Source of the DNA: a virus | Direction: 5' to 3' (one strand) | Length of the DNA stretch: 64,000 bases | Virus record (IMG/VR): IMGVR_UViG_3300045988_127310 | In this document: positions 9,030 through 27,319 of the stretch, piece by piece | How positions within the stretch are numbered: position 1 is the stretch's first letter | Layout: each line of letters starts with the position of its first letter | Made by a program: the position numbers and the translations under genes | Notes under the pieces: generated by a model | What the model saw: only the letters and a program-made list of their open reading frames with translations | The model's database searches: none | Told to the model about the DNA's origin: nothing

Positions 9030-9223
9030 TCACCAAGCAAGATATACAAGCAGCAACATCGTATATTTTCCGAAGCAGTTTTGTCTCGGAGGACCAGGCA
9101 AGGAAAGCAATGGTAAGAGCCGGCAATAACGCTACCAAGAACCTCGTCAAGACCTTTAGAGGCAAGTTGTTCAAGAAAGCTTTTGAAAGAGCCCGTAGAG
9201 GAAAGGATATCAGTTTTTTTTGA
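9026..9223 (+). CDS. hypothetical basic small protein
   Basis: ATGA overlap with the upstream ORF. Lys/Arg-rich. Confidence 0.4.
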   Translation: MITKQDIQAATSYIFRSSFVSEDQARKAMVRAGNNATKNLVKTFRGKLFKKAFERARRGKDISFF

Positions 9224-9332
9224 AAGACAGGAAAAAGAAAGTGGTTTCAACTTTCTTTACAATCCTAATAATGGTCGTATGCAAAGCGGTCATATTATAA
9301 TAGATGGAATTGATCTGTTTAAACAAATAATT

Positions 9333-9503
9333 CATGAAAGGTAAAAAAGTTGATATTCGTTTAGGTAGAGGTCTGGCGAATCAGATTAAGATAAACAAAA
9401 CCATTCCAGTGTCTCATAAACCAAAAGAAGAACGTCGAATGATGTTTATTTGTGGTGATGATATTGCTTCTCTTATAAAGCGGTTTGAAAATGAATCAAA
9501 GTA
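9333..9503 (+). CDS. possible 56-aa ORF below the ORF-track size cut-off
   Basis: Runs from the ATG at 9333 to the TAA at 9501-9503. A hairpin with T-run follows at about 9508-9540. Confidence 0.25.
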
Positions 9504-9553
9504 ATATAAAGTCGGGCATGTGTCTTGTCTGACTTTTTTTATATATTTGTGGC

Positions 9554-9877
9554 ATGGCAAGAGGTTATTATTGGATACCGCAGACAGATGAAACGTTAAA
9601 TGGCAGAAGCTATTACGTGGCTAAGATAGTAGGGGATATCACGTTTGATACTAAACGAAAAAGAATCGTATTTCAAGCTGATAGGTATTTCCCTGTAGGA
9701 TCTGTTTTCCATTTTACGCACAATTGCTTCAATTATATCATAACTTGCCGACTTCGTAAGCCGGGGCTTTGGTTTGAAGCCAGGAGAGAGGATTCGGGCC
9801 CTATTTGCCCTGAAGATATTGAGCGCTTTGAATCGGGAAGGTTTATACACCGAGATGGGTACATGCATTACATATAA
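9554..9877 (+). CDS. hypothetical protein (107 aa)
   Basis: ORF followed by a strong terminator. Confidence 0.5.
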   Translation: MARGYYWIPQTDETLNGRSYYVAKIVGDITFDTKRKRIVFQADRYFPVGSVFHFTHNCFNYIITCRLRKPGLWFEARREDSGPICPEDIERFESGRFIHRDGYMHYI

Positions 9878-9929
9878 GCTGAACTTGACGATTTTTCGTC
9901 AGATTATAATTTTTTTTCATATCATTTTT

Positions 9930-9968
9930 AAGCCATCAGACTTAGGAGTTAGATGGCTTTATTTTTTA
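9930..9968 (+). terminator. rho-independent terminator (AAGCCATC/GATGGCTT stem plus T-run)
   Basis: 8-bp perfect stem and 14-nt loop, followed by TTTATTTTTTAT. Confidence 0.6.
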
Positions 9969-9988
9969 TGATATGCTTGATTTTTAAC

Positions 9989-9996
9989 TACCTTTG
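9989..9996 (+). promoter_or_regulatory. Bacteroidetes-type -7 promoter element TAccTTTG upstream of the giant ORF
   Basis: Matches the TAnnTTTG -7 consensus of Bacteroides sigma-AB promoters, 24 nt before the ATG at 10020. No exact TTTG -33 partner was seen. Confidence 0.25.
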
Positions 9997-10019
9997 TCTC
10001 ATAACAAAAATGTTTTATC

Positions 10020-13000
10020 ATGGTATCAACGTGTATTATTAAAAGAGATAATAAAAAGAAAGTTGTTTCTGTCTCTACCAGATCAGGGGACAGGTCTATG
10101 TTGTTTGATAAAATAGCATCTGTTCCTCTTATGGAGAACAGGGAGCGGGCTACTACTGTTTTTAAAACCGTATTTTCCAACAAGTTCTTAAAGGCTTTTG
10201 GCGACTGGAGAAAGAGAGTGCCTATCAACAAACAGGCTTATAATAAGGTAAAATCCAACATCGATCTTATCCCAGAAGCCTATAGAGAAAGGGTGCTGGA
10301 TAAGGCTTCTAAGATGAGTAATCCTGTTCTTGTATCAAAATCAGATGCAACTTATGGGATTCAAGAATCAGGCTTCGGATTCTATAGCCAAGATCTGGGT
10401 GATAATATTATGTTGGTGGATGCTATGATCCCATCAAGTATTTCCGTACCGGAAGAACCAGGAATAGACGCCGGGCAGTATTTACAAGATGCTATATTTT
10501 CGGACTTCACTCCCGTATCTGTGGTACAGGATAAGGGTGTTAATTATATGGTTATAAAAGACGGTCTTAAGATATTTAGCCCAGAAGAGCTACCAGAAAC
10601 AGATTCTAATCCTGTGGGTGTAACGTATCAGACTGGAGAGCCTCGTTTGTTTTTCATGAACGATCGTAGTCAATTATTTGAAGATTACGGAGAAGCTCTT
10701 CGCTCTGGCGGGAATGATATCAGAATAGGGTTCTTATCAGGCACCGTTCAAGAATCTACCGTGGATGGCGTGGCAGACATTACTTACAAAGCTGGAAAGT
10801 ATGTTCTTAATAATCCCAAATCTTTTATACCGGTCATGACCGCTTCTGCTTCTACTTCTTTATCAACAAAAGGTGGTATAATTAACTACCTTATAAAGAA
10901 AGGTCTTTTGTCCGGATCTAAGATATTCGATCCTGAAACAAGAAGCTATTATCTTACAGGAGAAGGTCATACAGGACAAATTAGACTTTTCAATTCAGCC
11001 TTATCATACACCGAGCTCCGTAATCATTTTGGTTCCGATGTTTCCATGAACGACCAAGGTATGATAACCATAAGCTCGTTGGATAACAGTAAGGTAACTA
11101 TGAGACTCGCCACCGGAGGAACGGAAAGGATTAGTAGGGAACAGATAAAGAACGATCTTAAGTCAGGAAGATACAATGAATTGGACGCCAAGTACGATCA
11201 TTTTGATGCGCTTGTAGTTTCATTCATATTAGAAGATAACGATCTTTATGCTGATACTAAAGCTAAGATCGTATCAGATTATAGCAGGCAGGAACGTGAC
11301 CAACGAAATTCTATTGTCGAGATACTGAAAACGCTTGGCGTTAGTGTCATAGGTATGACCGACTATATAGAGAAGTACCAAACCAAATACGGGCACGAAC
11401 CTTCTGCTAAGGCATTGGCGGATATTGCTAATAACGTAATAGCAGTTGGTGAAGATGCTACTTTATCTGATTTAGTAGAAGAAACAGCCCACTTTCTTGT
11501 AGAGGCATACAGAGATCAGAATGCTGTTGAGGCTGTTCTGCAAGATGTAGAAGGTACGGAAGAGTGGAACCAGTATGCAGGTCAGTATTATAATACATAC
11601 GGTAAAGCGTATGAAGGAGCTGAGCTTGATAATGCTGTTAGGAGAGAAATTCTTGGAAAGATCCTCGCCAGGGAGATGCAGGCCGGCACAGCACAGGCGC
11701 CGGTAGAGCCCACCTCCTTCCTGGGGCGCGTCCGGCAGCTTTTCTCTGGAATCGTAAGCTGGCTTAAATCAGCTTTATCAACCCAAAGACAAGATTTGAA
11801 TAACGTTATTAAAAACATTCGTGATCTTGCCATTACTGACATAGATAAAGGATTTGACACCTCTCTGTTAAAGGATAATGACTTTACATTATACTCCCTT
11901 TCTTCTATGAACAAGAACAAGTTTCTTGAGTCTAAGATCAGATCACTAAGAAAAACATTAAGAGACTTACGTCAGATAAGCTCTGATAGGGCTGTAACTA
12001 CGTCTATGACCCTTGCGCAGCTTAAGACCATAGAAGATAAGATAAATAAGGTAGAGACCGAAATAGACAAGAATGAGATGGCGGCTGCCATGAACAGCAT
12101 GATCTCCACAGCCGAAGCTCAGGTCAGATACTTAAGCAATGTGGTGAACACCATCCTTCATGGTGATACCAAAGACGGCAAGCTTCACTTCAACACCAAT
12201 GATCGAAAGAACGTAGATATTATCAACAATCAGGTTCTTCCGATCATGAACGATCTTCGAGGATATATCCGTAACAGAAGTACCGAATTTGATGAACGTG
12301 AAAAGCAGGATTATACAAATAGGATCAACACCGTCATTGCCGACATCAATGGTATTCAGTCTGATATTAAATCAGTACAAGACCTTGATGAAAGTACGTT
12401 GCTTGATAAGTTAATGAACGAACTTCATGTGCCGGCAGATAAGGTAAAGAGAGTAAAAGAATTTTTCGACAAGGTTCAACACGATGTTTCTTGGATAAGT
12501 AGGTGGTTTGGTATATTAGAGCATTCTTCCAGTCCGTTCAATAACGCTCTTGGAGCTATGATTGCCAAAGACAATTACAATGCGATGGTGAATGCCCAGC
12601 CCGCCATATCCGATTTCCTGGCATATGCGAAAAAGCATGGTTTTAACAAATCTGAATTTGAAAAACTGCTTCAGAAAGTAGACGGCAAAACTTCTAATTA
12701 CCTTCGTAGTGCTCTTGATATGGCTAAATACGATCGTAATAAGAAGCTGGCGCAGATGCGAGCGTTTGCGACTGCCATGAACATAGAGATATCAGAAGAA
12801 GAAATTGGTGATGTGGTTGACAATAACCGTAATTACGTATTTAAAAGAGAAGTAGTTGACAAGGATGGAAATACGGTTACTGAAAACGCTAAATTCAAAC
12901 CATCGTCTGATAGGGTTAATACCGATATTTTTACCATCGAGCAGGAAAAGATCTATACGGAACAGATGGAAAAGTGGGATGCTGAAAATTCGGAACTGGA

Positions 13001-16000
13001 ATTTAGTGAAAGTTATGCCACAAGAATGGAATCCATATACAAAAAGGCTGAAGAAGAATTAGGGCATCCAGTTTCTCAAACAACCAAAGAATACCTTAAT
13101 GCTCTATCCAGGCAAAAACGGATACTGAGGCAGCCTTTTATTGATAGCGGTGGTAATTTTGATGAAGTTGCCTATTTTAAAAGCAGCAATTACGAAGAAG
13201 AAGGACTGCTTCGTAAACAACGTAAAGAAGCAGCTTCAGAATACATATATGTAGGAACCAGGAGAGTGGAAAAAACCGGCGACCAACTTAAGATGGCCAA
13301 AGAAATACAAGCTATAAATGAAGTTTGGAGAAAGGAATCAAATAATGTTACTAATGCCGTATCAGAATCGTTTTTGCAAAAATTGAGAGCGATTCAGAGC
13401 GAATCAGGAGGGGAAGCTGCATTGAGAACGCTTATGTTGGGTGGTCACCTGTCATTCAACGATCGGTTTTGGAATGATATAGAATCGGAACAGTCAGCGC
13501 GCACCGAATCAAATAACAAGGCTTCGTATCTCAAAATGGCGCATGATATCATTAGTTCTACGACAAGCGATAGAGATGCGACTGACGTGGATTCTATTGT
13601 GAAAGATATAGAAAAAAATAAGGCTATTATCAAGGAAATAATCGGAAACAATCGCGATGTGGCTGATATCGGAGAAATTAACGAAGCAACATTTACCTCA
13701 TCCGAAAGAGATGCTTTTAGGGCCGCATCTGAAGCTATTGAAGCCGATTACGCTATTTTGATAGATTATGCTAAGATGGTGGGTCTTGAAGATATTGATA
13801 AGTACCTTACTAAAAGCAATAAGGCTGAAAACGAAGTAAATCAGTCTTATTTAAATGCTCTTGCTGACTCCAAGGAAGTGGAATGGAAGTTCGTACAACG
13901 TCATACTACGGCGAAGAAAGCAAAAAGGATTCAGGCTTTAAGGGATAAGCTGTTTAAGGCTGCTGATAACCGATATCTGTTTACCGTATCTGAAACCAAC
14001 TACCTGTCAGAAAAGCTTGGTATAAGCAAAGAATTAGACGGTAGAGATTTTAGGAATGCTGTTAATGCTAAGATGGCCAGCTTGTTTTTAAATAATACAA
14101 GAGAAGAGGGTATAGAAGCTGACATAAAAGCGGGCATAGAAGAGGCCAATGCTATTGTTAATGAATTTGCCAGGAGCCAGGTCTTTTCGTACTATAAACG
14201 CATGGCGCCTACTGGATATGCGGCTATGATCGACAAAATCGGTCGAGGTGAGATAGATGTGGCGCAGATGGTTAAGGACGTACAAAACGGTACATCCACC
14301 CAAGATTATGGCATGGATATATCGTACCTTTCTTTCGATCCTGCAAGGGCATGGGTGGCTGAATCTGAAGCCGAAAATAGCGGCCGTAATCCTGATTATG
14401 TAAAAGATCATGGGTATGGTCATCGAATGCCTAAGAAAAGCCTGTATCGTGATGAATCGTATTTCAATGACTTTGGCATCAAGTATGATGTTGACGGTAA
14501 TGAGGTTGCTACTAAAAATGTAGAGCAGTGGAATATGATTCAAAAACTCAAGGAAATAAAAAGACAATCCCTTGATCTATACAAAGAGCAGAGCCCGAAC
14601 CTGTATGCTATTCCACAGATATCAAAACAAGACATAGAACGTATAGAAGGATTGGGTATTAACTTCAAAAATACGGTTCGTAATTTTGTATCAGATCTGT
14701 GCCTGGACAGAGTAGACGATTCTCTATATGGTAAGACCAGGCAAGGAGAAGTGTATGACCCGGAAGACAGACTTAGGTCTATACCTAAATACTACATATA
14801 TGAGTTGGAGAACCAAGATGATGTATCTCACGATTTTGGCTACTCTTATTCGATGCTTATGATGCAGTCATCGTTATACAACGAAAAGCAGAAGTCTATA
14901 GAGCTCGCTCAAGGACTGGAACAGATGTTACTGAACAAGCAATTTGAAGGCGGTAAGAAGGCTGAAGCAACCCAAGCATATCAGATGTTCAGAGACTTCT
15001 TCAACGATCATTATTATGGCATTAGGATGAACACCAAAAGACTTACGGTGAACATCGGAGGATATACGGTAGACCTTACAAGAATTATGATGGCTGTTGA
15101 AAGATTTATGTCGGTCATGAACTTGGCACTGTCTCCGTTTGTGGCAGCTACCGGCGCCTTAACAGGTCATATCAACCTCATCATGGAATCTGCCGTAGGA
15201 CAGTATATAAGCAAAGACTCCCTTAAATACGCATCGGCTGAATTTTCACGCCTTGCTCCATCTTGTATAGCAGAAACCGGAGACATAGATAGGAAAAGTA
15301 AATTATATGTCATAGGTGAGAGAATGGGGATATTCAATATCCGAAATCGTATGTATGGTGCCGGATACAATAGAGCGGCCAGGACCTTAATGCGTTCGCC
15401 TATGTATGCTTTTATGGAAATCCTGAACTACCCTCTTGATCCGCAGGTTATGATTGCTACTATGGACAATGTTCGTTATTACAAAGGCCGGTTCTACACG
15501 CTCCAAGATTTCAAGATGGAAAAAGAACGCAATAAAGAACAGAGTACCATAAAAAGAGAATGGAACGCATTAAAAGATCGTACTTTATGGAGTATGGTAG
15601 ACGTCGTGGATGGGAAGGTGGTTGTAAAGCCCGGATCAGGTGTTACTGTTGAGGAAGTTGAAACCCAGATGGCTATAACCAGGAATCAAGTCCGTAGCTT
15701 GTCGCAGATATGTAACGGATCTTTGAATGAAGAAAACCGAACTGCTGCATCGCGCAACTGGATAGCCAGGTTCATGACCGCCCACCGAGGATGGTTGGTG
15801 CTGGCGGCTCAACGTCTGTGGAAAAGACGTGGCTTCAATTTCCAGACAATGCAAGAAGAGGAAGGGTTGTCAATTACGTTAAAGAATATGATAGCCAAAA
15901 CATTTAGCCTGGCTTCCGAGTCTGGTATGAAAAACATCATAGATGCCTGGAATGAAAATAAAGACAATATGAATGAGGTAGAAAAAACCAATCTCAAACG

Positions 16001-17302: not shown

Positions 17303-18040
17303 ATGAGAAGAAGATTTGAAAATAATGCTAAACTATATGAGTATAAGATAGTTAGCAATTGTATAGGGGGGGGGGTAATCGTAGAGGGAAAGAAAGTAGG
17401 CACCATTCCACAGGGCGGGCAATTTATCTTTCTGTCTAAAAAAGAACGGCTGGATTCCATAAGTGTCCAAGGCGGTGTTCCAATGGAAGATAGGCGAGAG
17501 ATCGATAGTCAGGTTGATACGACAGAGAAATTGCTTGAACAGGATTCGGTGGTTCTTGCTATTGCTTTAGCAACCTCTTCTTATTATGGATTTAGAGTAA
17601 GTGTGATAGCACCTGATGAGTTTACGCTAAGAACAACCAATAGGATTAATAGAACCTTTTTAATAACAAGCTTTACTCCACCTGCTGCTATATACGGTGT
17701 AAACTTTGGTGATCCTATTGTCCTTAATTATGATAGTTACCAATATGAGATGCCAGATCTTGTAATTGATGGACCTCATGATAGAATAGTTAGGGCAGAT
17801 CCTAATCTTACTTGGGTTGTAGAATGTACAGACGCCGACTTTAAACCTTTGCCATATCCAAAATCATGGTCTGGCCAAGGTTTAAATTCTATGTTCTTAC
17901 CAGAAATGAAACGTCTTGCTCCTGGTGATCATCATGTATCATATACAGCTTATATTAATTTGGACTTGATAGATGATGGCGGAAGTAAAGTTCATACTGA
18001 ATATCTGATATTAAAAAAAACACTTAATTTTACGATATGA
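17303..18040 (+). CDS. hypothetical protein (245 aa) beginning MRRRF
   Basis: N-terminus MRRRFENN. Last rightward gene before the strand switch. Confidence 0.55.
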   Translation: MRRRFENNAKLYEYKIVSNCIGGGVIVEGKKVGTIPQGGQFIFLSKKERLDSISVQGGVPMEDRREIDSQVDTTEKLLEQDSVVLAIALATSSYYGFRVSVIAPDEFTLRTTNRINRTFLITSFTPPAAIYGVNFGDPIVLNYDSYQYEMPDLVIDGPHDRIVRADPNLTWVVECTDADFKPLPYPKSWSGQGLNSMFLPEMKRLAPGDHHVSYTAYINLDLIDDGGSKVHTEYLILKKTLNFTI

Positions 18041-18129
18041 CAACAATCCCCAACCGTACGCCTATTGTATGGTTGGGGATTGTTGTAGTTACCATCTTTT
18101 CTTATATAAGCAGAACATGAAATAAGTTT

Positions 18130-18618
18130 CTAAGCATTAACTTCATGACCTTCCCTATCTGTGAAAACTAAACCAATACCTTCTATGATATGTCCTACTA
18201 CAGGAGCTTTGTCAAATTCCTCCTTCGTAGCCCAAGTAGCATTATCAGGCATCAGATCCTTGAATGCGTCCGAAACATCACCTTGACACCAGCAGTTATT
18301 TGATGTAACAACGCCTTTCCCTTCGATATTGATATACATTTTTCTTCCATCACATCCAAGGCTGTTCCATCCGCTCGGTACGTTTTCCACCATAGGCTTA
18401 AGCACCCAGCTTACACCGTCTATCCTAACCCATCCAGGATCGTCTTTGTGCTTGTCGTACAAGTTTTGCCAAAAAGAGCATTCGTAGCACCATCCCCTGT
18501 CTTCCATGACAGTTCTTATCTCACTCCTTTCAAATCCATCTGCATCCATCGTGTGCGGAGAATGAGGCTGGTGAGGGGTGCCACATTTTGGACATACGAG
18601 TTTTAAATTATTTTTCAT
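18130..18618 (-). CDS. hypothetical protein with N-terminal zinc ribbon (CPKCG)
   Basis: ORF convergent with the rightward block. Confidence 0.5.
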   Translation of the reverse strand: MKNNLKLVCPKCGTPHQPHSPHTMDADGFERSEIRTVMEDRGWCYECSFWQNLYDKHKDDPGWVRIDGVSWVLKPMVENVPSGWNSLGCDGRKMYINIEGKGVVTSNNCWCQGDVSDAFKDLMPDNATWATKEEFDKAPVVGHIIEGIGLVFTDREGHEVNA

Positions 18619-18750
18619 ATTATTTCACTTTTACGATTTTAATAGAATCTCCGATATTGTATTCTCCTTGGTATCCAACGAATTTTATGATTCTATTATG
18701 TTTAAATATTGAAGGTGATTATATACAACTTTGCACCATCTATATAAAAC

Positions 18751-18795
18751 AGAAGCCGGATAATGATTAACGTATATCCGGCTTCTGTTTTATAT
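18751..18795. terminator. bidirectional terminator hairpin (AGAAGCCGGATA/TATCCGGCTTCT)
   Basis: 12-bp perfect stem flanked by A-run and T-run on both sides. Confidence 0.6.
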
Positions 18796-18797
18796 GG

Positions 18798-18986
18798 TTA
18801 AAATTCTTTTTCGTTACCACCTTTTTTAGAGGTGGTTTTATCAAAAAGAGGGTCGTTAGGATCTGTTTTGGGATTATAGCTAAATACACCTTTAGCTATT
18901 CTCTTCATATCCTTCTCTAATTTTCCACTTTTACTACTTCTGATCGTAGTAGTGGTTGATATTGTGAATTTCTTATTTTTTTTCAT
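18798..18986 (-). CDS. small basic ORF downstream of the transposase
   Basis: 62 aa; overlaps the transposase stop by 4 nt. Weak. Confidence 0.3.
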   Translation of the reverse strand: MKKNKKFTISTTTTIRSSKSGKLEKDMKRIAKGVFSYNPKTDPNDPLFDKTTSKKGGNEKEF

Positions 18987-19906
18987 GCCGTAATTTTCTT
19001 TAGTTGTGAATACCTTAATCGTCGTTTGGTATTCTGCAAAAATACATCGAATCTTTCAGATTCCGATAGATGTTTCGTGTTATATCTGAAAGATTCGCAA
19101 TCTACATATCTTTGAAGATGTTTTCTCGACACCCAGAAATGGGTTCCAGAAATCATTTTCTTCAAATGGCTCCAATATCCTTCGATTGTGTTTGTTGATC
19201 TTCTGCCTATTACATACGCTCCCTTTTTGTGATATACTTTTTGATGATCAAACTTTTCTTTGTCGATCCCGTTATACGCATACCATTCGTCAGAATATAT
19301 GGTAGAATTAGGATGAACGGTATTGTATATCAAAGGAAGTAAGGTTTTACCTTTTGTGTCTGTAACGACATAAGTGACAACAAATCCTTCTCGTTGGAGT
19401 GTCCCAAACACAGGGGTTTTATCTTTTAAAGATCTCCCCTGTGCATCTTTAACTTTATCCTTACTATGTCTATTCTTGTTTTTGCCACCAATATAAGTTT
19501 CATCCACTTCAATCTCGCCTTTCAAACACGGCTCTTTTATTTCAATACTAAAACAATTGTGAATACGTTGAAGCATAAACCAAGCCGTTTTCTGTGTTAC
19601 TCCCACGATTTTAGACAACTGTAAAGATGATACTCCTCTTTTCATTTCAACAACAAAATAACAAGCCAGCATCCATTTTCGTAATGAAACCTTTGAATTT
19701 TCAAAAATCGTTCCTGTACGAACATTGAAGTATTTACCCGTGTTTTTACACTTGTACCTATTTCCTTTGCATTTATACACCTTAGATTCCGGATCAAAAG
19801 GAGAAACAACGTGATCTCCCCACCTTTCTTTTTCAAGAAAGGTTATACACGCTTGCTCATCAGGGAACAATTTTGAAAATTCAGGAAGTGATTTAAAATC
19901 GAACAT
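18983..19906 (-). CDS. IS1595-family (ISXO2-like) DDE transposase
   Basis: 307 aa. It has an N-terminal zinc-ribbon region, then a DDE-type core with the ISXO2-like pattern (GEIEVDETYIGGK ... YSDEWYAYNG ... TNTIEGYWSHLKK). Size and motifs fit IS1595-family transposases, which are common in Bacteroides. Confidence 0.7.
   Translation of the reverse strand: MFDFKSLPEFSKLFPDEQACITFLEKERWGDHVVSPFDPESKVYKCKGNRYKCKNTGKYFNVRTGTIFENSKVSLRKWMLACYFVVEMKRGVSSLQLSKIVGVTQKTAWFMLQRIHNCFSIEIKEPCLKGEIEVDETYIGGKNKNRHSKDKVKDAQGRSLKDKTPVFGTLQREGFVVTYVVTDTKGKTLLPLIYNTVHPNSTIYSDEWYAYNGIDKEKFDHQKVYHKKGAYVIGRRSTNTIEGYWSHLKKMISGTHFWVSRKHLQRYVDCESFRYNTKHLSESERFDVFLQNTKRRLRYSQLKKITA
18983..19906 (-). mobile_element. 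IS1595-family insertion sequence core; terminal inverted repeats not delimited
   Basis: Transposase gene only. Flanking AT-rich DNA gave no clear inverted repeats or target-site duplication. Confidence 0.4.
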
Positions 19907-20075
19907 ACTTCTTATCTTTATATTGGATTATAAAAATACAAAAATATATTCATATAACCAACTAAAAATCAATTAAATTCATCGAATATCTGATTTTGAA
20001 TTATTTTTTTTTTGTTGTTAAATTTCTAATTCTTTTCTATTTTTGAGGATTGTCTAACTTTATAATACTAATATC

Positions 20076-20471
20076 ATGTACAAGGAAACTGTCAAAATTG
20101 ATTCTATAGAGTGTACCATATTTTATGATCAAGATATTAATCTACCTCAAAAACAAGAAATAGATTTTGAATTTAAAATTGAAGACGTGCCCTCATACCA
20201 ATTTAAAAATGGACAAATCAATTCTTATGTTTCGGGTAAGATTTTTGAGATCAAGTCTATTTTACCTATAGAAGGCAATATTTCAAAATCTTCTTCTTTT
20301 GCTGAAATTCCTAAATTTAATATTACTTTTGATTTTCTATATAAATTATCTCTATTTCATTTGGAAAATCACTTGAAAACGTTAGAACTTGTATATAATC
20401 ATAAATTGGATAAAGATTCAATAACCAATATTCTTAAAAAGAAATTGGATGATTTTTTTTATCATAAATAA
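20076..20471 (+). CDS. hypothetical protein (131 aa)
   Basis: ORF in the cargo islet. Overlaps the 3' end of the leftward ORF 20434..20682. Confidence 0.4.
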   Translation: MYKETVKIDSIECTIFYDQDINLPQKQEIDFEFKIEDVPSYQFKNGQINSYVSGKIFEIKSILPIEGNISKSSSFAEIPKFNITFDFLYKLSLFHLENHLKTLELVYNHKLDKDSITNILKKKLDDFFYHK

Positions 20472-20682
20472 ATTTATCATACTCTTCTTTCGATATTCTT
20501 ATGCCATCTTTAAAATAGATGGCATAAGGCGTTTTTTCTGGTATAACTACAGAAATATATCCTTTTGAATGTAATATTTTCTGAAATTTATCATTGTCAA
20601 AAAAATAATAACTTTCAAGTAAATGGATATATTCTTTATCTGTTAACCCCCAAAGACTTTGATAATCTTCTAAATGTTTCAT
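20434..20682 (-). CDS. hypothetical small protein
   Basis: Its ATG directly abuts the conserved 38-nt element at 20681-20718. Confidence 0.45.
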   Translation of the reverse strand: MKHLEDYQSLWGLTDKEYIHLLESYYFFDNDKFQKILHSKGYISVVIPEKTPYAIYFKDGIRISKEEYDKFIYDKKNHPISF

Positions 20683-20718
20683 AACTGTAATTTTTAAAAG
20701 TGAATAATTAATTGATTT
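20681..20718 (-). promoter_or_regulatory. conserved 38-nt promoter/leader element, copy A (ATAACTnTAAnTTTTAAAAnTGAATAATTAATTGA)
   Basis: 35 of 38 nt identical to 43481-43518. Both copies end exactly at a leftward ATG. Confidence 0.45.
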
Positions 20719-20720
20719 AT

Positions 20721-20760
20721 AAAAAGAAAGCGGTGATAAACTAAGTTACCACCGCTTTTA
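20721..20760 (-). terminator. rho-independent terminator for the lipoprotein/OMP transcript (AAGCGGTG/CACCGCTT)
   Basis: 8-bp stem; a T-run on the minus strand follows the lipoprotein stop. Confidence 0.55.
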
Positions 20761-20778
20761 CTATCATATTGTTTCGTA

Positions 20779-21174
20779 TTACTTTATTTTGTACATTGAG
20801 AAATCTTCAAAATCACCAGATATACAATCAAGTTTCAGCCAACCTTCTGACACCTTTACATCATAAACAATAGGTGGCTCAGGGTCACTATCAAATACAA
20901 TGACTAATCTCATTGTATTTTTATCAAAAGAGTATGTGAAAGGATCTGGGCTTTTCTTTTTGCCTTCATTGTAATATACAGTCATTACGCCTGTATCGTC
21001 ATTATAAAATGTGAGTTCGAAAAATTCATCTGCGGGGAATTGCTCTCCCCATGAACCTATTAATATGCTGTTATTGTCATTATTCACATTATCGTCGTTA
21101 CACGAAAATGTGAATAAAAGTAGCAAGGTTAATAATATATGTAGTACTTGTTTCATGTTATTGTTAAAATTCAT
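20779..21174 (-). CDS. lipoprotein (signal peptide plus lipobox FSC)
   Basis: The N-terminus MKQVLHILLTLLLLFTFSCNDD is a type II signal peptide with a lipobox cysteine. Confidence 0.65.
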   Translation of the reverse strand: MNFNNNMKQVLHILLTLLLLFTFSCNDDNVNNDNNSILIGSWGEQFPADEFFELTFYNDDTGVMTVYYNEGKKKSPDPFTYSFDKNTMRLVIVFDSDPEPPIVYDVKVSEGWLKLDCISGDFEDFSMYKIK

Positions 21175-21868
21175 ATCCTACCTTTATACTAAATCCGTTC
21201 ATGTCACCACTTCCATCTCCCCATTCTTCATCAAATGATACCTTTTGTATAGAATATCCTATACCTAAATTAACAGCTTGTTTTTTAGTAGTCATAAACC
21301 GTACACCAATAAAAGGGTTACAATACAATCCACCTTTTTTTGCATGTCTTGGTGCTTCTTTAGTATTGAACTTATACCCTATTCTTAATGCAATAAAAGG
21401 TGATATTGGACCATTTAAGGCATATCCTCTCACATCAGCAAATATAGGTATGCTTACTGTTGAATAATCGGTCATATAGTGTATGCCGGTTCCACCTCCT
21501 ACAAATAAATACTGATTGATTTGGCTTCCATACGTGAAATATAATTCTGGACCTTTGTATCCACCTGCCCAGTATCCAAGATCAATCATAAATCTACTCC
21601 CTGTCAAATCGTACTTTTCATTGGATATCTTAAATGGAATTTTAGATTCTTTCTCTTCTTTGGTTATTTTACTGATATCTTCCATAGGGTACACAAACGT
21701 ACTACCATCAGAAGTGCGAATAGTAATTTGCTTGTCTGGTATCTGCTCGATAATAACCCCTTTTATAACACTTCCATTTTTTAAATGAATAGCTTCAACC
21801 ATTTTGTTCTGTGAGTAAGCGCATACACTACCCAATAGAACAACTAACAATAATAGATACTTTTTCAT
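21164..21868 (-). CDS. outer-membrane beta-barrel protein (Bacteroidetes OMP, porin-like)
   Basis: Signal peptide MKKYLLLLVVLLGSVCAYSQ; alternating amphipathic strands; C-terminal VGYEF aromatic terminus typical of beta-barrel OMPs. Confidence 0.65.
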   Translation of the reverse strand: MKKYLLLLVVLLGSVCAYSQNKMVEAIHLKNGSVIKGVIIEQIPDKQITIRTSDGSTFVYPMEDISKITKEEKESKIPFKISNEKYDLTGSRFMIDLGYWAGGYKGPELYFTYGSQINQYLFVGGGTGIHYMTDYSTVSIPIFADVRGYALNGPISPFIALRIGYKFNTKEAPRHAKKGGLYCNPFIGVRFMTTKKQAVNLGIGYSIQKVSFDEEWGDGSGDMNGFSIKVGYEF

Positions 21869-22363
21869 ATGAAATAATTTTGCTCTTTCTGCCTCCTTCG
21901 AAAGATTAACAAAAAAAAGAAGCGTGGAGACTATTGGATACTACCGCATTGAGGTCTTGGACTACCCTTCGCACAATAGTAAACAATAGCCCCACGCCTT
22001 ATGTCAGTATACTATTATCCCTCTTGTATAATCAGAATGCGTATACAACAACATAGGCGTAGGAGCTGTATGTCTATTATCTTGTGCGAATGAAAGTGTC
22101 CAAGTTTCAATGCAAGATAATATCTTAACGCTTCTACGTCTTTATTCTAATACGTGAGGGCAAAGATAGTTATTCTATCTAATATTTTAAAACGGCTTAA
22201 AAGGATTTAATTTGATGTAAAATGAATATTGGGAATTTTAACAGTTCGTGTTTTTGCATAAACAACAAAATATCTAAGATCATGAACAAATGCAAAAAGC
22301 CATCAAGAGAAACAGCCAGTAAAGCAGGCAAGTTATTAAGAAAGAAGATATCTTCCAAAGATG

Positions 22364-22708
22364 TTAAAACTCTTGCAGGTTACACTTTACAAGCCGCTTC
22401 CCGTCGTGGAAAAAGTAAGAGTGGTTGCCAAAAGAAAGGAAAATAAGTTCTTTAATACAAGCTTTTGGTATGGTCATTATACCAGAAGCTTGTTCTAATG
22501 TATTGGAATTACCAACAGCATAATGACCAGCTACAGATATAGATCTCTCATTTTCATGTACAACAATACCATAGCTCTCTATTTCTGATATATCTGTTTC
22601 GTAATCCTCCAGATCTACCCATGTTCTTTCTGATAGGTTGGAATCTATCCACTTAACTAATACCCGCTTGTTTAAAAGCGATTCTTTTTTATGTCTATTC
22701 TTTTTCAT
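22364..22708 (-). CDS. hypothetical protein (114 aa)
   Basis: Leftward ORF, preferred over the overlapping rightward 74-aa ORF. Confidence 0.45.
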   Translation of the reverse strand: MKKNRHKKESLLNKRVLVKWIDSNLSERTWVDLEDYETDISEIESYGIVVHENERSISVAGHYAVGNSNTLEQASGIMTIPKACIKELIFLSFGNHSYFFHDGKRLVKCNLQEF

Positions 22709-22817
22709 AACTTGTTATATTGATTTTTTAATAAACGAAAAGAGATTGTGCCAGCATTTTGACACAATCTCAATTATATGGGAATAATACTAAGGAAAGG
22801 TGTAAAGTGGTATATAA

Positions 22818-23006
22818 TTACCAAAATTTGTAACCTGGTTTTACAGCTTCCGCTTCTTCTCTCGTATCAAACATTAAGGTAGTGACAGCTCCTATGCCTT
22901 CGCAAATGTAAGACACTTTCACCCACCACCTAAAAATACCAGAACCGTAATCATCATAGTACGGCTCGGAAAGAATCTCTTCTACATACCCATCTAAATA
23001 ATTCAC
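22818..23006 (-). CDS. hypothetical small protein
   Basis: 4-nt overlap with the upstream gene. Confidence 0.35.
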   Translation of the reverse strand: MNYLDGYVEEILSEPYYDDYGSGIFRWWVKVSYICEGIGAVTTLMFDTREEAEAVKPGYKFW

Positions 23007-23725
23007 GATCTCTCCTCCTTGTTTTTAGATTCTGCCTCTTCGAGTATGCTGATCACCTTATCAACAATATCTGAATCGGATATTTTCTCAATAAAAACAT
23101 CCATTGCCTTAGTTATGTCATTGGCTTCTTTTTCTTCAAGAGCTATTTCTCCACCGGTAATAGCATCAGATAATGATGTAGATAAGTGTCTTATCTTATC
23201 AATGCTCATAAACGTAAATGGATTACCACCCCAGCCACCACCCATTTCTTTCATGATCTGATATCCACCTGAAATAAGTCTGCCTGATGTCATGGCCAAG
23301 AAGGATACGATTAGGGACAGTACCGCCGCTTCCGTCCGCTCCTCGGACGCGCCCCTCGACCACACGGCTGCCCTTATAGCGCCGGCCAGGTTGTCTATGT
23401 ATGGCATGAGGCAATCTTCCATCGCTTGTGTTATATCAGCTATAACCTCACTACGCTCTTTATTTATGTAGTAGATAGAAGCATTGTACCTCTTTATCTC
23501 TTTGTCCATATCATTTAAAAGACGCTTGATATTGTGCTTATACATAGGACTGGTTTTAATTACTTCCTTTAGCTTAAGAATGTAATTATAAGCCTGGTCG
23601 TTTACGAACAACGTCATGGTATCAACCGTAGAATGAAGCGTGTTGAGACTGTTAAGAATCTTATCGAAATTGTTTATCAAATAAGCTTTTCTGGCTTTTG
23701 CTGCATAGTTAATCATCGCATTCAA
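23003..23725 (-). CDS. hypothetical protein (240 aa)
   Basis: Colinear ORF; contains a GC-rich island at about 23290-23400. Confidence 0.55.
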   Translation of the reverse strand: MNAMINYAAKARKAYLINNFDKILNSLNTLHSTVDTMTLFVNDQAYNYILKLKEVIKTSPMYKHNIKRLLNDMDKEIKRYNASIYYINKERSEVIADITQAMEDCLMPYIDNLAGAIRAAVWSRGASEERTEAAVLSLIVSFLAMTSGRLISGGYQIMKEMGGGWGGNPFTFMSIDKIRHLSTSLSDAITGGEIALEEKEANDITKAMDVFIEKISDSDIVDKVISILEEAESKNKEERS

Positions 23726-24251
23726 ATTTTAGATTTTCAAGTTCGTGTATTTGTAACTTAAGAGACTTAATTAAATCCGTTCTCTGCTCCTCTGCATGTT
23801 TTAAAGCCTCTTCCTTGCTTTCAAAAGCACAATCCCCTATCTGATAAGGGGTGTAACGACCAGGAGTGTCGGCTAATAAAAGACCACCACAATCTTCTAT
23901 TCTGGCTTTTACCTTTCTTATTTTCCCATCTTTTAGACACATGTCCGTAACCCATACGAATTTACCATATAATTTATCATACTCTTCTAATCTCTCTTCT
24001 TGCAATTCATACCATTTAGGCTTAGGAAATCTTAATGTGAATTTAATTTCGGTATCTTTCTCTAAGACATTAATATCATACGCCTCCGGCCACAGTTCTT
24101 TTATGCTGTCTTCATCTTCAGCATACGCCACCAATACAAATGAATTATCGGATTCTGCACTACACCAATATGGATATTTTATAGGCCATTTGACTGGACG
24201 GTAGTCGTTGTCGCAGTCGGATTTTTTAATGTAAAATCTTGCTCTAATCAT
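23709..24251 (-). CDS. hypothetical protein (180 aa)
   Basis: Colinear ORF. Confidence 0.55.
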   Translation of the reverse strand: MIRARFYIKKSDCDNDYRPVKWPIKYPYWCSAESDNSFVLVAYAEDEDSIKELWPEAYDINVLEKDTEIKFTLRFPKPKWYELQEERLEEYDKLYGKFVWVTDMCLKDGKIRKVKARIEDCGGLLLADTPGRYTPYQIGDCAFESKEEALKHAEEQRTDLIKSLKLQIHELENLKFECDD

Positions 24252-25449
24252 GATTCTTTTATTCTTTTAAGTATATGTTCAATAACTTTAATAGTCCACC
24301 CGTTTCCCAACATCTTGTACTGTTGGGTTTCGCTGCATTCCCATTTATACCAATCTGGTACAGTCTGTAACCTGGAGCACTCTGTAGGGGTTAATCTTCT
24401 TATTCTGAAATCGCCATGTAATGTTCTCTGTATGATAAAATTGTTTCTATCATATGAATTACAAGATAATGTTGGAGTCTTATCTTCATGAAATCCACCT
24501 TTGTTAAATCCTCTTGGTATTTGGAAAATAAGATTATCTTTCTGAACTGTTGTGAGACAATTGGATTTTCCATCGTTTTTAAATTCAATCATCTGAACTG
24601 TTTTAAGACCAGATTCTCTACATGTAGGTTTTTCTGGATTCCTACCTCTCATTGCTACACAAATAAGATCGTACGTGTATTTACCCTTTACGGTAACAGT
24701 ATTGGATTTTTCATCTTTTGTTTTAATATTAGCTCCATAATAATTCCCCTTGTCGTGATTTCTTTTCAAGTGAAAAGCTAAATTGTTTAAAACTTTTTCA
24801 GATAAGTAATATTTTTCATCTACTTCATATTCCTCTATATCACTTATGGTCAAACCCTCGTCTTTAGGCTGAGGGATAATGCCGCCTTGAATATTAGTCC
24901 AATAAATACGTTTCCTGGTTTGAGCGGAAACAAGTGCTGAATTAATATGATTGCCTTTACACCCTATAGCATCATCGAATACCGGCTCCCATTTCTTTCC
25001 CATCTTAACGTTCTCAAGAAGAAACAACACATCAGGATTAGTTTTTCTTACATCATTCAAAATACGAATAAACTCCCAGAATAAGTAAGACTGACCGGCA
25101 AATTCAAATCCTTGTTTTTTTTTAATTCAAGATACTCATCAAGTGATTTGATTTCTATTCCTTCTACGGTAGACAACCCTTTTCTTTTTCCAGAAAAGGA
25201 CATATCTGTACATGGGCTGCCGGCTAAAATAAGATCTATGTGTCCAAGATCTTCTACATTCAAATCCCTTACATCTCCTACTTGTATCGTATTAGGGAAA
25301 TTTAATTGCGTTCGTTTAATAGCAAACTTATCTATTTCTGATGCATAATATACTTCAGGTGTGATCCCTACTTCTTTTAACGCTATTTGACCACATGACA
25401 TTCCGTCAAATAAACTTAACACTCTCATGGCATTATACACATTTTTCAA
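24248..25449 (-). pseudogene. Dcm-type DNA (cytosine-5) methyltransferase, split into two ORFs by a -1 frameshift within an A9 tract (phase-variable OFF, pseudogene, or homopolymer sequencing error)
   Basis: The N-terminal ORF carries motif I (LFDGMSCG) and the PC motif (GSPCTDMS). The C-terminal frame carries ENV (FLLENVKM), QTRKRIYW and the C-terminal RRLTPTECSRLQTVPDWY...LGNGW motifs. The frames join perfectly if the A9 run at 25115-25123 were A10. Confidence 0.8.
25115..25123 (-). repeat. homopolymeric A9 (T9 on the plus strand) tract at the methyltransferase frameshift point
   Basis: Encodes KKN in the N-terminal frame; one extra A restores a KKKQGFEFAGQSYLFWEF reading. Confidence 0.8.
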
Positions 25450-25741
25450 TTTTAATTAATTTTGATGATAGATACATATTCCATTTTCCTCTGCCTCTAT
25501 CACCTTTTTCGTTTTGTTTTTGGATTGTCAAGTACAGATCTCCGTCTTCACATACTTCAACTTTTTTCAAGAAGCCTATCATTTCATCTCCTGTTTCGTG
25601 TAAAATACGGATCTTATCTCCTTCTTTTAACCCATAATTGGAATCAAAGTATTCTTTTTTGATTCTATCAATATTGTCTTTATGTTTTTTTATAGCATAA
25701 AGCTCTTTTCTTAATAAATAATTTAGTTGTTCTATTGTCAT
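25433..25741 (-). CDS. hypothetical protein (102 aa)
   Basis: Colinear ORF. Confidence 0.5.
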   Translation of the reverse strand: MTIEQLNYLLRKELYAIKKHKDNIDRIKKEYFDSNYGLKEGDKIRILHETGDEMIGFLKKVEVCEDGDLYLTIQKQNEKGDRGRGKWNMYLSSKLIKIEKCV

Positions 25742-26295
25742 TTCTTCTCCTCCTTATTTAATGGTATTAATCCTTTCCCGTGCTTATCATACCACAGCAT
25801 AGCTATACAATTCCATGCACATTGTGCAAGATGAAAACATCCTGTATCAGAATCCACTCTTTCTCCTTTCATGTATTCTATCAGGTGTCTAAACATTGCC
25901 GCGCGATACCGTTCAAAGCCGTTGTCAAGATTCTGCCAATTATTAGGCCCATATTTCTTGGCTCCAGCATGATAGACTTTTACAATGTCCTCAATTTCTT
26001 CCATCGGAAGCAAATCCCATCGTAGTTTATCGTCAATGATGTCATTTTTCACCGATTTGTTTTCTCTGGATACTTTGACAGGAATAATACCCATAATGTC
26101 CGTTCCTATGATAAACGTCTCTCCATTGCAACAAACCTCAGCATATTCATCATCTACCTCTATGTCTGATACTGCCTCCACTATAGCTCCTCTGGCTATT
26201 TCTAATTCGGAACTGATTACATCACTTTCCAACATGCGAAAAATAGATCCTTTTGGATAAAGGATGTTTTTAGTATTATTGTCCATCTTTTCCAT
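25738..26295 (-). CDS. hypothetical protein; C-terminal half resembles an all-alpha NTP-pyrophosphohydrolase (MazG-like) domain
   Basis: C-terminal pattern RWDLLP..E...KYG.NNW...GFERYRAAMFRHL...GE..DSDTG..HLA. Assignment is tentative. Confidence 0.4.
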   Translation of the reverse strand: MEKMDNNTKNILYPKGSIFRMLESDVISSELEIARGAIVEAVSDIEVDDEYAEVCCNGETFIIGTDIMGIIPVKVSRENKSVKNDIIDDKLRWDLLPMEEIEDIVKVYHAGAKKYGPNNWQNLDNGFERYRAAMFRHLIEYMKGERVDSDTGCFHLAQCAWNCIAMLWYDKHGKGLIPLNKEEKK

Positions 26296-26339
26296 TGTTT
26301 TATCGTTGTTTTAATCGCTTGATATAATAATATAATCCA

Positions 26340-26678
26340 TCATTCTCCTGTAAAGCGGTCAAATTCTTCTCCGCTCATGACAATGCGGTTAATGATAATT
26401 ATGCCGTTATTGCTATAATTATCACTTTTAACTCCCATATCATCAAGCTCCTTCTTTAAGTCTTCAAATGTGGGACCTTTCTTGTCTTTGAAAAATAAAG
26501 TAGCATGTACAACCTTTCCATTGTTTAGTTTTACTCTCACGGTATAGACATACCCTTTTTCATCTTCATCCTTTTTATTGATATCATCAAGGATGCTATT
26601 TATCATATCCTTGTCCTCACGTGATAGGTTGGATATGGCTATTCTGCCCTTTAATCTAAATACTTCATTTTCGTTCAT
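26340..26678 (-). CDS. hypothetical protein (112 aa)
   Basis: Colinear ORF. Confidence 0.5.
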   Translation of the reverse strand: MNENEVFRLKGRIAISNLSREDKDMINSILDDINKKDEDEKGYVYTVRVKLNNGKVVHATLFFKDKKGPTFEDLKKELDDMGVKSDNYSNNGIIIINRIVMSGEEFDRFTGE

Positions 26679-26962
26679 GACTTTCTGTTTTTGTTGTTTT
26701 CAAAATATTGTCTTACGGCTTCTATGGCTTTATCATCATCAAAAGCTTCTTCAAACTCCGTGTAGAACCTATCTCGCTCCATGCAGAATGTGTTTTTTCC
26801 TTCCGGTATAGGACGGAACACAACCACCCTCTCTTTGTCGTGATTGGTTCCTATTATGTTATTGTCTAAGATAATAGAATACCTTCTTGAACTTTTGTTG
26901 ATAACAACATCATGTTGAAGACCATACAATTTAAGTATTTCCCTTAATTGATTTGTTTCCAT
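26675..26962 (-). CDS. hypothetical protein (95 aa)
   Basis: 4-nt overlap with the downstream gene. Confidence 0.5.
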   Translation of the reverse strand: METNQLREILKLYGLQHDVVINKSSRRYSIILDNNIIGTNHDKERVVVFRPIPEGKNTFCMERDRFYTEFEEAFDDDKAIEAVRQYFENNKNRKS

Positions 26963-27319
26963 TTATATTATTCCTTCCAAATTTACTTTAATAGAACCAT
27001 TTATGGTTTTAATGCTCCCATCTATGGTCGAAATCACATCATCTATATCATTTATAATACTTTCCATGTCATCAACCACCTCCTCCATATCAGTTACAGC
27101 CTGATCTGACTCCCAATATCTTTCTGAGTCTTGTAACGATTCCGGTATATTATCTCTCGCCTCAGTCTCTTCGTCTAAAATCATATCAACATCATCTTTG
27201 GCTGAATTTATGTTGCACTTCAACTCCGACAACTTTGATTTGATGTATTCAAAATCCGTTTTATACTTATTTACGTTGTTAATAACATCCAATATTTTTT
27301 TTCTTCTCTTGTTGTTCAT
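26963..27319 (-). CDS. hypothetical acidic protein (118 aa)
   Basis: Colinear ORF; Asp/Glu-rich. Confidence 0.5.
   Translation of the reverse strand: MNNKRRKKILDVINNVNKYKTDFEYIKSKLSELKCNINSAKDDVDMILDEETEARDNIPESLQDSERYWESDQAVTDMEEVVDDMESIINDIDDVISTIDGSIKTINGSIKVNLEGII

Follow-up and report, generated by a model that had tools for sequence, protein, structure and literature searches.

What is a transposase gene doing in a phage genome beside the genes of a lipoprotein and an outer-membrane protein (OMP), and did the three arrive together? The question is raised by a locus in the IMG/VR virus record IMGVR_UViG_3300045988_127310, of which we analysed a stretch of 64,000 nucleotides (hereafter the window). 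A preliminary description had taken the locus for an insertion sequence (IS) accompanied by a surface-remodelling moron, placed where the rightward and leftward gene blocks of the phage meet. Our analysis supports another answer: positions 18714-22822 are very probably one transposon of the IS1595 family, intact and loaded with cargo, which left the chromosome of a Parabacteroides host for the phage genome and brought both surface-protein genes along. The transposon is a new and apparently unnamed IS1595-family element with passenger genes, of which a limited literature search found no description. It is made of three parts: a transposition backbone (terminal repeats, transposase and an open reading frame [ORF] of 62 aa), a passenger operon and a two-gene hypervariable cassette.

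The limits of the element were obtained in two independent ways. The closest deposited genome is that of phage csAssE-Sib (OR575929.1, 151 kb, human gut; L001 in our numbering of the sequences compared), whose flanks are 94-96% identical to those of the window. Window positions 18113-18713 align to its positions 9091-9691 and positions 22823-27000 to 9850-13976, so that csAssE-Sib has 158 bp where the window has the whole element. An intact site of 150-158 bp with the same break points is found in 69 of 80 IMG/VR relatives, and homology to all of these genomes stops exactly at 18713/18714 and 22822/22823. The region is thus cargo and not core, as had been supposed. A separate repeat search of the window returned the kind of inverted repeats (IRs) that the preliminary description had left to be looked for: a 24-nt pair, complementary at 21 of 24 positions and starting with 5'-GG on both sides, whose arms, IR-L and IR-R, coincide with the two break points. 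This sequence, which starts GGTGATTAT, occurs just twice in the 64 kb of the window and terminates every bacterial copy fetched, and on these grounds we rejected the idea that the IRs are phage promoter repeats. A short IS around the transposase alone was also rejected, there being no IR pair at that place, and a 16-nt IR-like match at 20386-20401 was taken as chance, as it is not kept in other copies. The IR-bounded unit is larger than the preliminary description had it: besides the transposase, OMP and lipoprotein genes, it holds ORFs not named there, of 62 aa, 131 aa (+), 82 aa and 114 aa, and possibly one of 74 aa (+). Members of the family are 2.8-5.0 kb long.

The same unit recurs in bacterial contigs of Parabacteroides type. 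The exact OMP sequence is present in 4,134 blocks of the collection, and each of ten contigs of 200-580 kb shows it within one and the same module, at 10 different chromosomal sites, in the order 114 aa - OMP - lipoprotein - small ORF - opposite-strand ORF - transposase - 62 aa, the neighbours being chromosomal genes without relation to it (SusC/D, tRNA synthetase or biosynthetic genes, for instance). More than 25 different flanking contexts among the bacterial contigs indicate that the unit is mobile. Perfect 8-bp target-site duplications (TSDs), 92% A+T, border 23 of the 28 distinct non-phage insertions among all loci fetched, and one bacterial copy (L186), with the 8-bp TSD TTAAATAA, is 99.85% identical to the phage copy across all 4,109 bp. 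The plasmids of PLSDB gave no match to the element. In the mechanism that we propose, the DDE transposase would recognise the 24-nt IRs and insert the whole unit into A+T-rich 8-bp targets.

It is on this point that the distinction between an IS and a separate moron breaks down, since all genes lie inside one IR-bounded unit and that same unit carries TSDs in bacteria. A history of two acquisitions, in which a short transposase-only IS came to lie beside an OMP-lipoprotein moron selected for superinfection exclusion, could draw on the promoter-like box and terminator that the operon has of its own, and on the presence of the same leader sequence ahead of other genes without any transposase, which makes the operon a self-contained expression unit in principle. 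However, no IRs lie immediately around the transposase and the sole IR pair encloses all genes; the complete unit, OMP and lipoprotein included, sits between TSDs at many bacterial sites; and in the phage relatives every part is missing together, homology stopping where the IRs end. We regard two acquisitions as very improbable.

Exceedingly improbable, in our view, is that the locus is an assembly artefact produced by misjoining a high-copy bacterial repeat into a phage contig. The great abundance of the element in gut metagenomes lends this idea some plausibility, as such repeats often break or misjoin assemblies, but both flanks are phage DNA colinear with csAssE-Sib, and other relatives hold copies or relics at other sites. 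Identical junctions, moreover, recur in independent assemblies from other samples and assemblers: in L180 (132 kb, ERZ942406; 100%), in L181 (95 kb, ERR4794739; 99.98%) and in 10 further similar places. The exact sequence of the phage-IS junction had no match in IMG/VR, the junctions of L180 and L181 having surfaced through an exact-protein look-up, and none of the deposited phage genomes carries the element or its hairpin.

Membership in the IS1595 family, which had been proposed in the form of a 307-aa ISXO2/IS1595-type DDE transposase, is borne out by the profile searches. The protein matches NCBIfam NF033547 ('IS1595 family transposase') with 192.8 bits (cut-off 75) over positions 1-214 of 215, and Pfam PF12762 (DDE_Tnp_IS1595) with 144.2 bits (cut-off 27) over positions 2-153 of 153. 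It has 6,931 homologs, the closest being 99% identical and the closest named one 86% (Parabacteroides faecis), and its relatives in this search are overwhelmingly bacterial. The family is defined by a DDE domain and an 8-bp TSD, and terminal IRs starting with GG are stated for the related Merlin elements (PMC8101967). The overlapping 62-aa ORF gave no match in Pfam, PHROG or NCBIfam. In some variants (L010, L016, L182 and L187; e.g. L010 10906-11940) its place is taken by a 344-aa protein with a P63C domain (PF10546), and the element then measures about 4.8-5.0 kb.

Several observations weigh against the reading of an intact IS1595-family transposon that came from Parabacteroides. The TSD that the preliminary description had suggested searching for is absent from the phage copy, whose flanks are ATATTGAA and AAAATTTG, so that the 8-bp duplication of the family is found in the bacterial copies and not here. 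The mechanism of insertion at the phage site is therefore one that we infer from the bacterial copies, with the assumption of an adjacent deletion. According to the description of the family, an N-terminal zinc finger (Zn_Tnp_IS1595) is present in all IS1595 groups except IS1016 (PMC8101967). In our transposase the zinc ribbon PF12760 scores 20.2 bits, under its cut-off of 25.4, and a single CxnC pair (C46...C53) is left, the first CxxC being missing. The placement in an ISNwi1-like subgroup (IR ends GGnnATTAT, a length of 1.7-4.8 kb with passengers), with which the IR start GGTGATTAT and the lengths of 2.8-5.0 kb would agree, is tentative. Lastly, the assignment of the host rests on source annotations, because a scan of named genomes with the transposase gave distant proteins only (at most 56% identity among the matches listed, from many phyla).

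Table 1. Features of the element and of its insertion site in the window (ORF, open reading frame; OMP, outer-membrane protein; IR, inverted repeat).
Feature	Position	Strand	Basis or remark
Remnant of the 82-aa phage lipoprotein gene, C-terminal ~30 codons	18619-18713	-	csAssE-Sib alignment
Complete IS1595-family cargo transposon (very probable)	18714-22822 (4,109 bp)	-	Main genes all on minus strand; homology breaks and IRs
Terminal inverted repeat IR-L, GGTGATTATATACAACTTTGCACC	18714-18737	+	Transposase side; repeat search of window
Perfect hairpin, 21-bp stem, 12-nt loop	18742-18795	.	Between 62-aa ORF and IR-L; repeat search
62-aa ORF	18798-18986	-	4-nt overlap with transposase stop; conserved throughout the family (61-67 aa)
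IS1595-family DDE transposase, 307 aa	18983-19906	-	NF033547 and PF12762
Hypervariable cassette, larger ORF, 131 aa	20076-20471	+	Divergent from transposase
Hypervariable cassette, smaller ORF, 82 aa	20434-20682	-	Convergent; 38-nt overlap with 131-aa ORF
Terminator-like hairpin after 131-aa cassette ORF	20497-20529	+	
Intrinsic-terminator-like hairpin ending OMP-lipoprotein operon	20727-20758	-	13-pair stem, then CTTTTT
Lipoprotein, 131 aa	20779-21174	-	Lipobox ...LLLLFTFSC, then NDDN
Outer-membrane protein, 234 aa	21164-21868	-	Signal peptide; C-terminal ...GYEF
Promoter and structured leader RNA	21889-22168	-	Folding, covariation
Purine box of leader, GGAGGCAG	21896-21889	-	Pairs with internal loop GUCUCC (21931-21926)
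Imperfect hairpin of leader, ~216 nt	22134-21919	-	Followed by U-run, ~21918-21910
Bacteroidota -7 box, TATCTTTG	22161-22168	-	Start of conserved leader block; predicted
Optional module adjoining IR-R	22169-22798 (630 bp)	-	In about half of bacterial copies
Possible 74-aa ORF	22222-22446	+	Overlaps 114-aa ORF
114-aa ORF of optional module	22364-22708	-	
Terminator-like hairpin, inward-facing	22742-22771	-	Near IR-R, within optional module
Terminal inverted repeat IR-R, reverse complement GGTAATTATATACCACTTTACACC	22799-22822	-	Repeat search of window

The insertion also altered the site that received it. About 158 bp of phage DNA are gone, amounting to most of a native gene for a lipoprotein of 82 aa, which most relatives keep and which is annotated in csAssE-Sib as 'cell adhesive protein' (WOZ57328.1, L001 9586-9834). 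Its product is itself a small lipoprotein (MRYFVLLMALVLSSC..., …LVLSSC…), and it must be dispensable, because the transposon destroyed its gene in this lineage. The transposition into the phage, or a later event, would have removed this adjacent DNA. Upstream, a 63-aa phage gene now ends in ...KFW*, its stop codon being provided by the last bases of IR-R. The position of the insertion also differs from the one first proposed, as it lies one gene inside the leftward block and not at the junction of the two blocks. The hairpin between the 62-aa ORF and IR-L is, judging from its sequence, likely a bidirectional terminator insulating the end of the element; together with the inward-facing hairpin near IR-R it would shield the element at both ends from phage transcription.

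This locus is an insertion hotspot of the phage family. In the relatives that have other inserts at the gap corresponding to 18713-22823 (L038, L046, L049, L064, L086, L087 and L096; also L063, L069 and L070), it is filled by ORFs of 410 or 383 aa, some of them decayed, or by one of 164 aa; going by their sequence, the 410-aa and 383-aa ORFs look TnpB-like. Elsewhere on the backbone the same IS family is represented in further members of the group, be it by full copies, truncated ones or relics, at the equivalents of about 27.0, 43.8, 45.4 and 52-57.3 kb of the window, and again at about 18.1-23.7 kb. The relics consist of IR-R and the 114-aa ORF (99.5% identical) without transposase (L060 2844-3288, the same as L196; L197, L198, L200, L192 and L201), and one of them lies at the equivalent of about 26.97 kb, followed by a 238-aa ORF. 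A clean TSD is seen in only one of six phage-contig insertions (L180, L190, L193, L194 and L201 being among those compared), against the large majority of the bacterial ones, and several phage-contig insertions are accompanied by adjacent deletions on the kilobase scale, of up to about 5 kb. Packaging limits or IS-mediated deletion may account for such TSD-less copies with deletions. A second IS lineage, with a transposase about 71% identical and the same IRs and hairpin, was found in other IMG/VR contigs of about 80-155 kb that share only short stretches with the window (L352, L357, L360, L364, L372, L375, L379, L380 and L391-L393). Large gut phages therefore seem to be recurrent carriers of this IS family. 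Intact ISs are regarded as rare in phage genomes, and here they have entered them repeatedly, usually with adjacent deletions.

Could the traffic have gone in the opposite direction, with the element or part of it originating in phages and the phage copy being ancestral? The optional module next to IR-R gives some reason to ask. Annotations place its 114-aa protein in P. johnsonii as well as in records labelled 'Bacteriophage sp.', the module is found in many contigs of about 140-160 kb and has weak PHROG matches, and a 49%-identical homolog is encoded by a viral contig without IRs. This module may indeed be of phage origin. But the intact empty site that the 69 relatives keep at this locus, the clean TSDs of bacterial copies compared with phage copies that mostly have none, and the bacterial affiliation of nearly all transposase relatives speak against extending such an origin beyond the 114-aa module, and we find a reverse direction of transfer for the element quite improbable.

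The bacterial side of this exchange can be narrowed down. Source annotations assign proteins identical to those of the element to P. merdae and P. johnsonii, and for this reason the Gram-negative Bacteroidetes host deduced in the preliminary description can be sharpened to Parabacteroides, as far as sequence annotations can tell. The element thereby provides a strong and independent link between an abundant group of gut phages of about 150 kb and Parabacteroides.

We now turn to what the element carries. The main features of the passenger operon had been correctly recognised from the start: the lipoprotein with its lipobox, the OMP with its signal peptide and C-terminal aromatic residue, the 11-nt overlap between the two (21164-21174) and the dedicated terminator, a hairpin directly after the lipoprotein gene. 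The AF2 model of the OMP (pLDDT 86) has a signal helix, a five-stranded N-terminal domain (residues 23-72) and an eight-stranded β-barrel (90-233), and Foldseek matches it to OmpW, NspA, OmpA-TM, OprF and OmpX with probability 1.0 (TM 0.58-0.72, normalised to the target), while Pfam OMP_b-brl scores 19.1 bits, under its cut-off of 28.7, and homologs are few (38). With its signal peptide, eight predicted strands and C-terminal aromatic residue, the modelled protein fits the class of small eight-stranded β-barrels (OmpW / OmpA-TM / OmpX / NspA). The lipoprotein falls just under the cut-off of PF18692 (DUF5640; 27.6 against 28.5 bits), and homologs of 60% identity in P. merdae bear the DUF5640 name with a precomputed PF18692 match. 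Its AF2 model (pLDDT 79.9) is a tethered eight-strand β-barrel, lipocalin-like, whose best Foldseek match is BT_0846 of B. thetaiotaomicron (TM 0.70), after which come potempin E, YedD and lipocalin-like proteins. In view of what is known of lipoprotein export signals in Bacteroidota, the acidic NDDN after the lipidated Cys suggests a surface-exposed lipoprotein, and both proteins would be exported to the host outer membrane. The passengers vary among members of the family, in which TRL, other lipoproteins or a 235-aa DUF5640 protein can be found instead. A lipoprotein paralog of 60% identity sits in a different mobile element (L224), with a tyrosine integrase, HTH_17 and Phage_CRI genes beside a tRNA gene, and without transposase or IRs. 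The 312-aa protein upstream of that paralog was considered as a homolog of the OMP and rejected, as there is no homology.

Is this operon a moron of the phage? It is absent from relatives and has its own promoter and terminators, all predicted, as a moron would. It was not acquired free-standing, as in bacteria the OMP-lipoprotein unit travels within the IR-bounded transposon. Because the whole unit sits with 8-bp TSDs at many bacterial sites, the surface proteins are better understood as passengers of the transposon that were acquired passively, and because the host chromosome already carries identical copies, a role in conversion specific to the phage becomes less plausible.

The same anatomy is compatible with adaptive retention, in which the surface proteins, the cassette or both give receptor masking, phage exclusion or toxin immunity. 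In favour of this, the insertion is unchanged in several samples, it has replaced a native small lipoprotein gene of the phage at the same position, the phage group has taken up the element repeatedly, and lambda Lom and Bor, T5 Llp and the Cor lipoproteins are known for such roles. On the other hand, a host whose chromosome already holds the same element, in many cases at a number of sites, gains nothing new from the phage; several of the copies in phages have decayed to relics; and no passenger matches a defence family in PADLOC. Adaptive retention is thus unlikely, though far less so than the other alternatives considered above. Most likely the phage merely tolerates the element as a hitch-hiker, at a hotspot of both recombination and insertion; we favour this view because host chromosomes hold the same copies and sister phages hold decayed relics. 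A benefit to the phage from the surface proteins is possible, and the phage may also serve as a vehicle spreading the element between strains. What appeared to be a phage-encoded pair of OMP and lipoprotein is in this interpretation the baggage of a host transposon, for which a reading as a lysogenic-conversion moron would be wrong, and similar calls of surface proteins in the annotation of viromes deserve the same check.

Between the passenger operon and the transposase, the element ceases to be conserved. Its two arms, from IR-R past the lipoprotein terminator (22822-20675) and from the transposase to IR-L (20090-18714), are 98-99.4% identical between copies, whereas the centre of about 590 bp that separates them (20091-20675, about 26% G+C) matches no other copy when set against the equivalent segments of L002, L009-L018 and L204-L220. 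The architecture of this cassette is constant: it is always a convergent pair, with an ORF of 52-87 aa on the cargo strand and one of 113-157 aa on the opposite strand, and promoters, 5' untranslated regions and first codons (ATG-GAA-AA...) are conserved, while the remaining coding sequence is unrelated between copies. The 82-aa ORF of the window has weak similarity to its counterpart in L002 only (E = 6e-7). No match to the cassette ORFs was found in Pfam, PHROG, NCBIfam or PADLOC, the Pfam result holding for 10 cassette variants. A role in immunity, as a toxin-antitoxin pair or in defence would be our guess.

The most novel part of the element, judged against Rfam 15 and a limited literature search, is the leader of the passenger operon. 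That a structured non-coding leader precedes the OMP gene had been proposed, with a length of 350 nt (21869-22221). The structure holds, with a minimum free energy of -95.3 kcal/mol, a z-score of -7.06 and none of 200 shuffles folding as well; the extent does not, the conserved part being shorter (about 21889-22168). Covariation was examined over 82 distinct homologs and a structure of 86 pairs, with slid-partner controls and 500 shuffles. Cells are paired in 83.2% of cases against 39-44% when partners are slid, 49 pairs have compensatory changes against 24-33, the covariation score is 0.297 against 0.07-0.10, and 0 of the 500 shuffles reach the observed value on any of five measures. All nine pairs of helix 6 covary (95% paired), and the long-range helix GUCUCC/GGAGGC, formed with the purine box, is paired in 87% with three of six pairs covarying. 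Two core segments, AAUCUGGACAAUUUC and GGGCAGUCCAGAGCCUCA (the core of the internal loop), are almost invariant. G·U cells number 234 and A·C cells 36, and in 14 of 17 variants the fold of the cargo-sense strand is more stable than that of its complement, by 10-27 kcal/mol; it is because of this excess of G·U over A·C and of the better folding of that strand that we consider the leader to act as RNA, on the cargo-sense strand.

The leader is by no means confined to the transposon. A pattern scan of the metagenomes yielded at least 120 loci, and a profile search confirmed 116 true homologs among the matches listed; about 14 of the loci listed have a transposase or IRs and most have none. It is present in 50 IMG/VR contigs, and its loci include L224 3827-4100, within the integrase/Rep element, and L229-L398. 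It is followed by genes of many kinds: surface-type lipoproteins are frequent among their products, which also include Big_2/DUF6383 proteins, a trypsin-like lipoprotein, an SNF2 helicase and many proteins without a known family, and among the loci listed an ATG lies 40-60 nt past the hairpin in 62 and 150-200 nt past it in 24. In L017 (6417-7550) and L212-L219 (e.g. L212 2611-3642), a tyrosine integrase gene immediately precedes a 5'-truncated hairpin and is divergent from it, IR-R being absent, which suggests that in two variants of the element another integrative element was inserted or recombined at the leader region. Rfam 15, run over the whole window, returned no match to the leader at gathering thresholds, and matches at chance level only at E <= 5 (for instance mir-934, with 25 bits against a threshold of 80). 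Three identities were rejected: FopS, whose architecture is different; a part of the transposition machinery, since most metagenome copies listed have neither transposase nor IRs and the one in L224 belongs to an integrase/Rep element; and an integron or rAID-1-like cassette system, since each locus has a single copy and seldom a recombinase close to it.

As to function, the passengers would be transcribed from their own promoter through the leader, and its stem and U-run, together with the pairing of loop and purine box, would gate the expression of the following gene. The leader is thus probably a cis-acting attenuator or stability element, to go by its sequence and predicted fold. A bolder proposal, which we hold about equally likely to be right or wrong, is that the leader is the founding example of an undescribed and widespread cis-regulatory RNA of Bacteroidales, with variable helices that covary fully and a base resembling a terminator, placed ahead of dozens of unrelated accessory genes (most of them for envelope proteins) on transposons, integrative elements and phages, and perhaps a portable switch responsive to a ligand or protein for horizontally acquired surface genes, and separately that the cassette is a diversifying immunity or defence module. 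Both leader RNA and hypervariable cassette are common in the human gut microbiome.

The neighbouring phage genes show other differences from csAssE-Sib. The last gene of the rightward (structural) block is an ORF of 245 aa in the window (17303-18040), in the place of which csAssE-Sib has an unrelated gene of 150 aa (L001 8303-8752); as the flanks of this exchange are 96% identical, it has the appearance of a swapped module, possibly related to host range. An extra 82-aa gene of csAssE-Sib (L001 8867-9115) is missing from the window. On the other side of the element, at 24251-25428 (-), a cytosine-5 DNA methyltransferase gene is split by a frameshift, with the parts corresponding to residues 1-116 and 103-375 of the csAssE-Sib protein in different frames. 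The split is also present in L180 and L181 (ORFs of 130 aa and 270 aa); a pseudogene, an error of sequencing or a site of recoding could explain it.

How does the element compare with what is known? Passenger-carrying groups of IS1595 appear in ISfinder as 'ISNwi1+', 'ISPna2+' and 'ISNha5'. Our element resembles passenger-carrying ISs of this family in its DDE_Tnp_IS1595 transposase, GG-starting IRs, 8-bp duplications, additional genes between the IRs and several copies per genome. It differs from known ISs of the family in the conserved 62-aa second ORF that overlaps the transposase stop and in its apparently degenerate zinc ribbon, in a modular interior that combines a conserved promoter and structured leader with swappable envelope passengers and a hypervariable cassette, and in its recurrence in large gut phage genomes of virulent type. 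With the surface proteins known from phages, such as Lom (an eight-stranded OMP) and Bor (a lipoprotein) of lambda, Llp of T5 and the Cor lipoproteins, the passenger operon shares the combination of an eight-stranded OMP and a small lipoprotein in a promoter-to-terminator unit that is missing in close relatives. Unlike them, it travels as cargo of a transposon of which the host chromosome has copies too, no sequence relationship to them was seen, and by fold its products come closest to OmpW/NspA and BT_0846/lipocalin-like proteins.

The leader invites two further comparisons. In rAID-1 arrays, a XerD-type recombinase is associated with a repeat placed between every gene of the array (bioRxiv 10.1101/471110). 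As in those arrays, variable small accessory genes of low G+C content follow a conserved non-coding sequence on mobile DNA of gut Bacteroidales; in contrast to them, 115 of 116 loci have just one hairpin, 6 of 120 among the matches listed have a tyrosine recombinase, and the mobility enzyme here is a DDE transposase. The Correia elements of Neisseria and the ERIC sequences of enterobacteria are palindromic, promoter-bearing intergenic repeats that give rise to long hairpin transcripts, and terminator-containing 5' leaders and attenuators are likewise known. Our leader resembles all of these in being a dispersed imperfect palindrome of about 220 nt, lying between a promoter and a gene, ending in a U-run and heading many unrelated genes. 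It departs from Correia and ERIC in the high conservation of its loops, in its strand-specific covariation and conserved G·U pairs, in its covarying long-range helix with the purine box and in its nearly fixed distance to the ATG. All these features speak for an RNA with a function and against a DNA repeat of the selfish kind.

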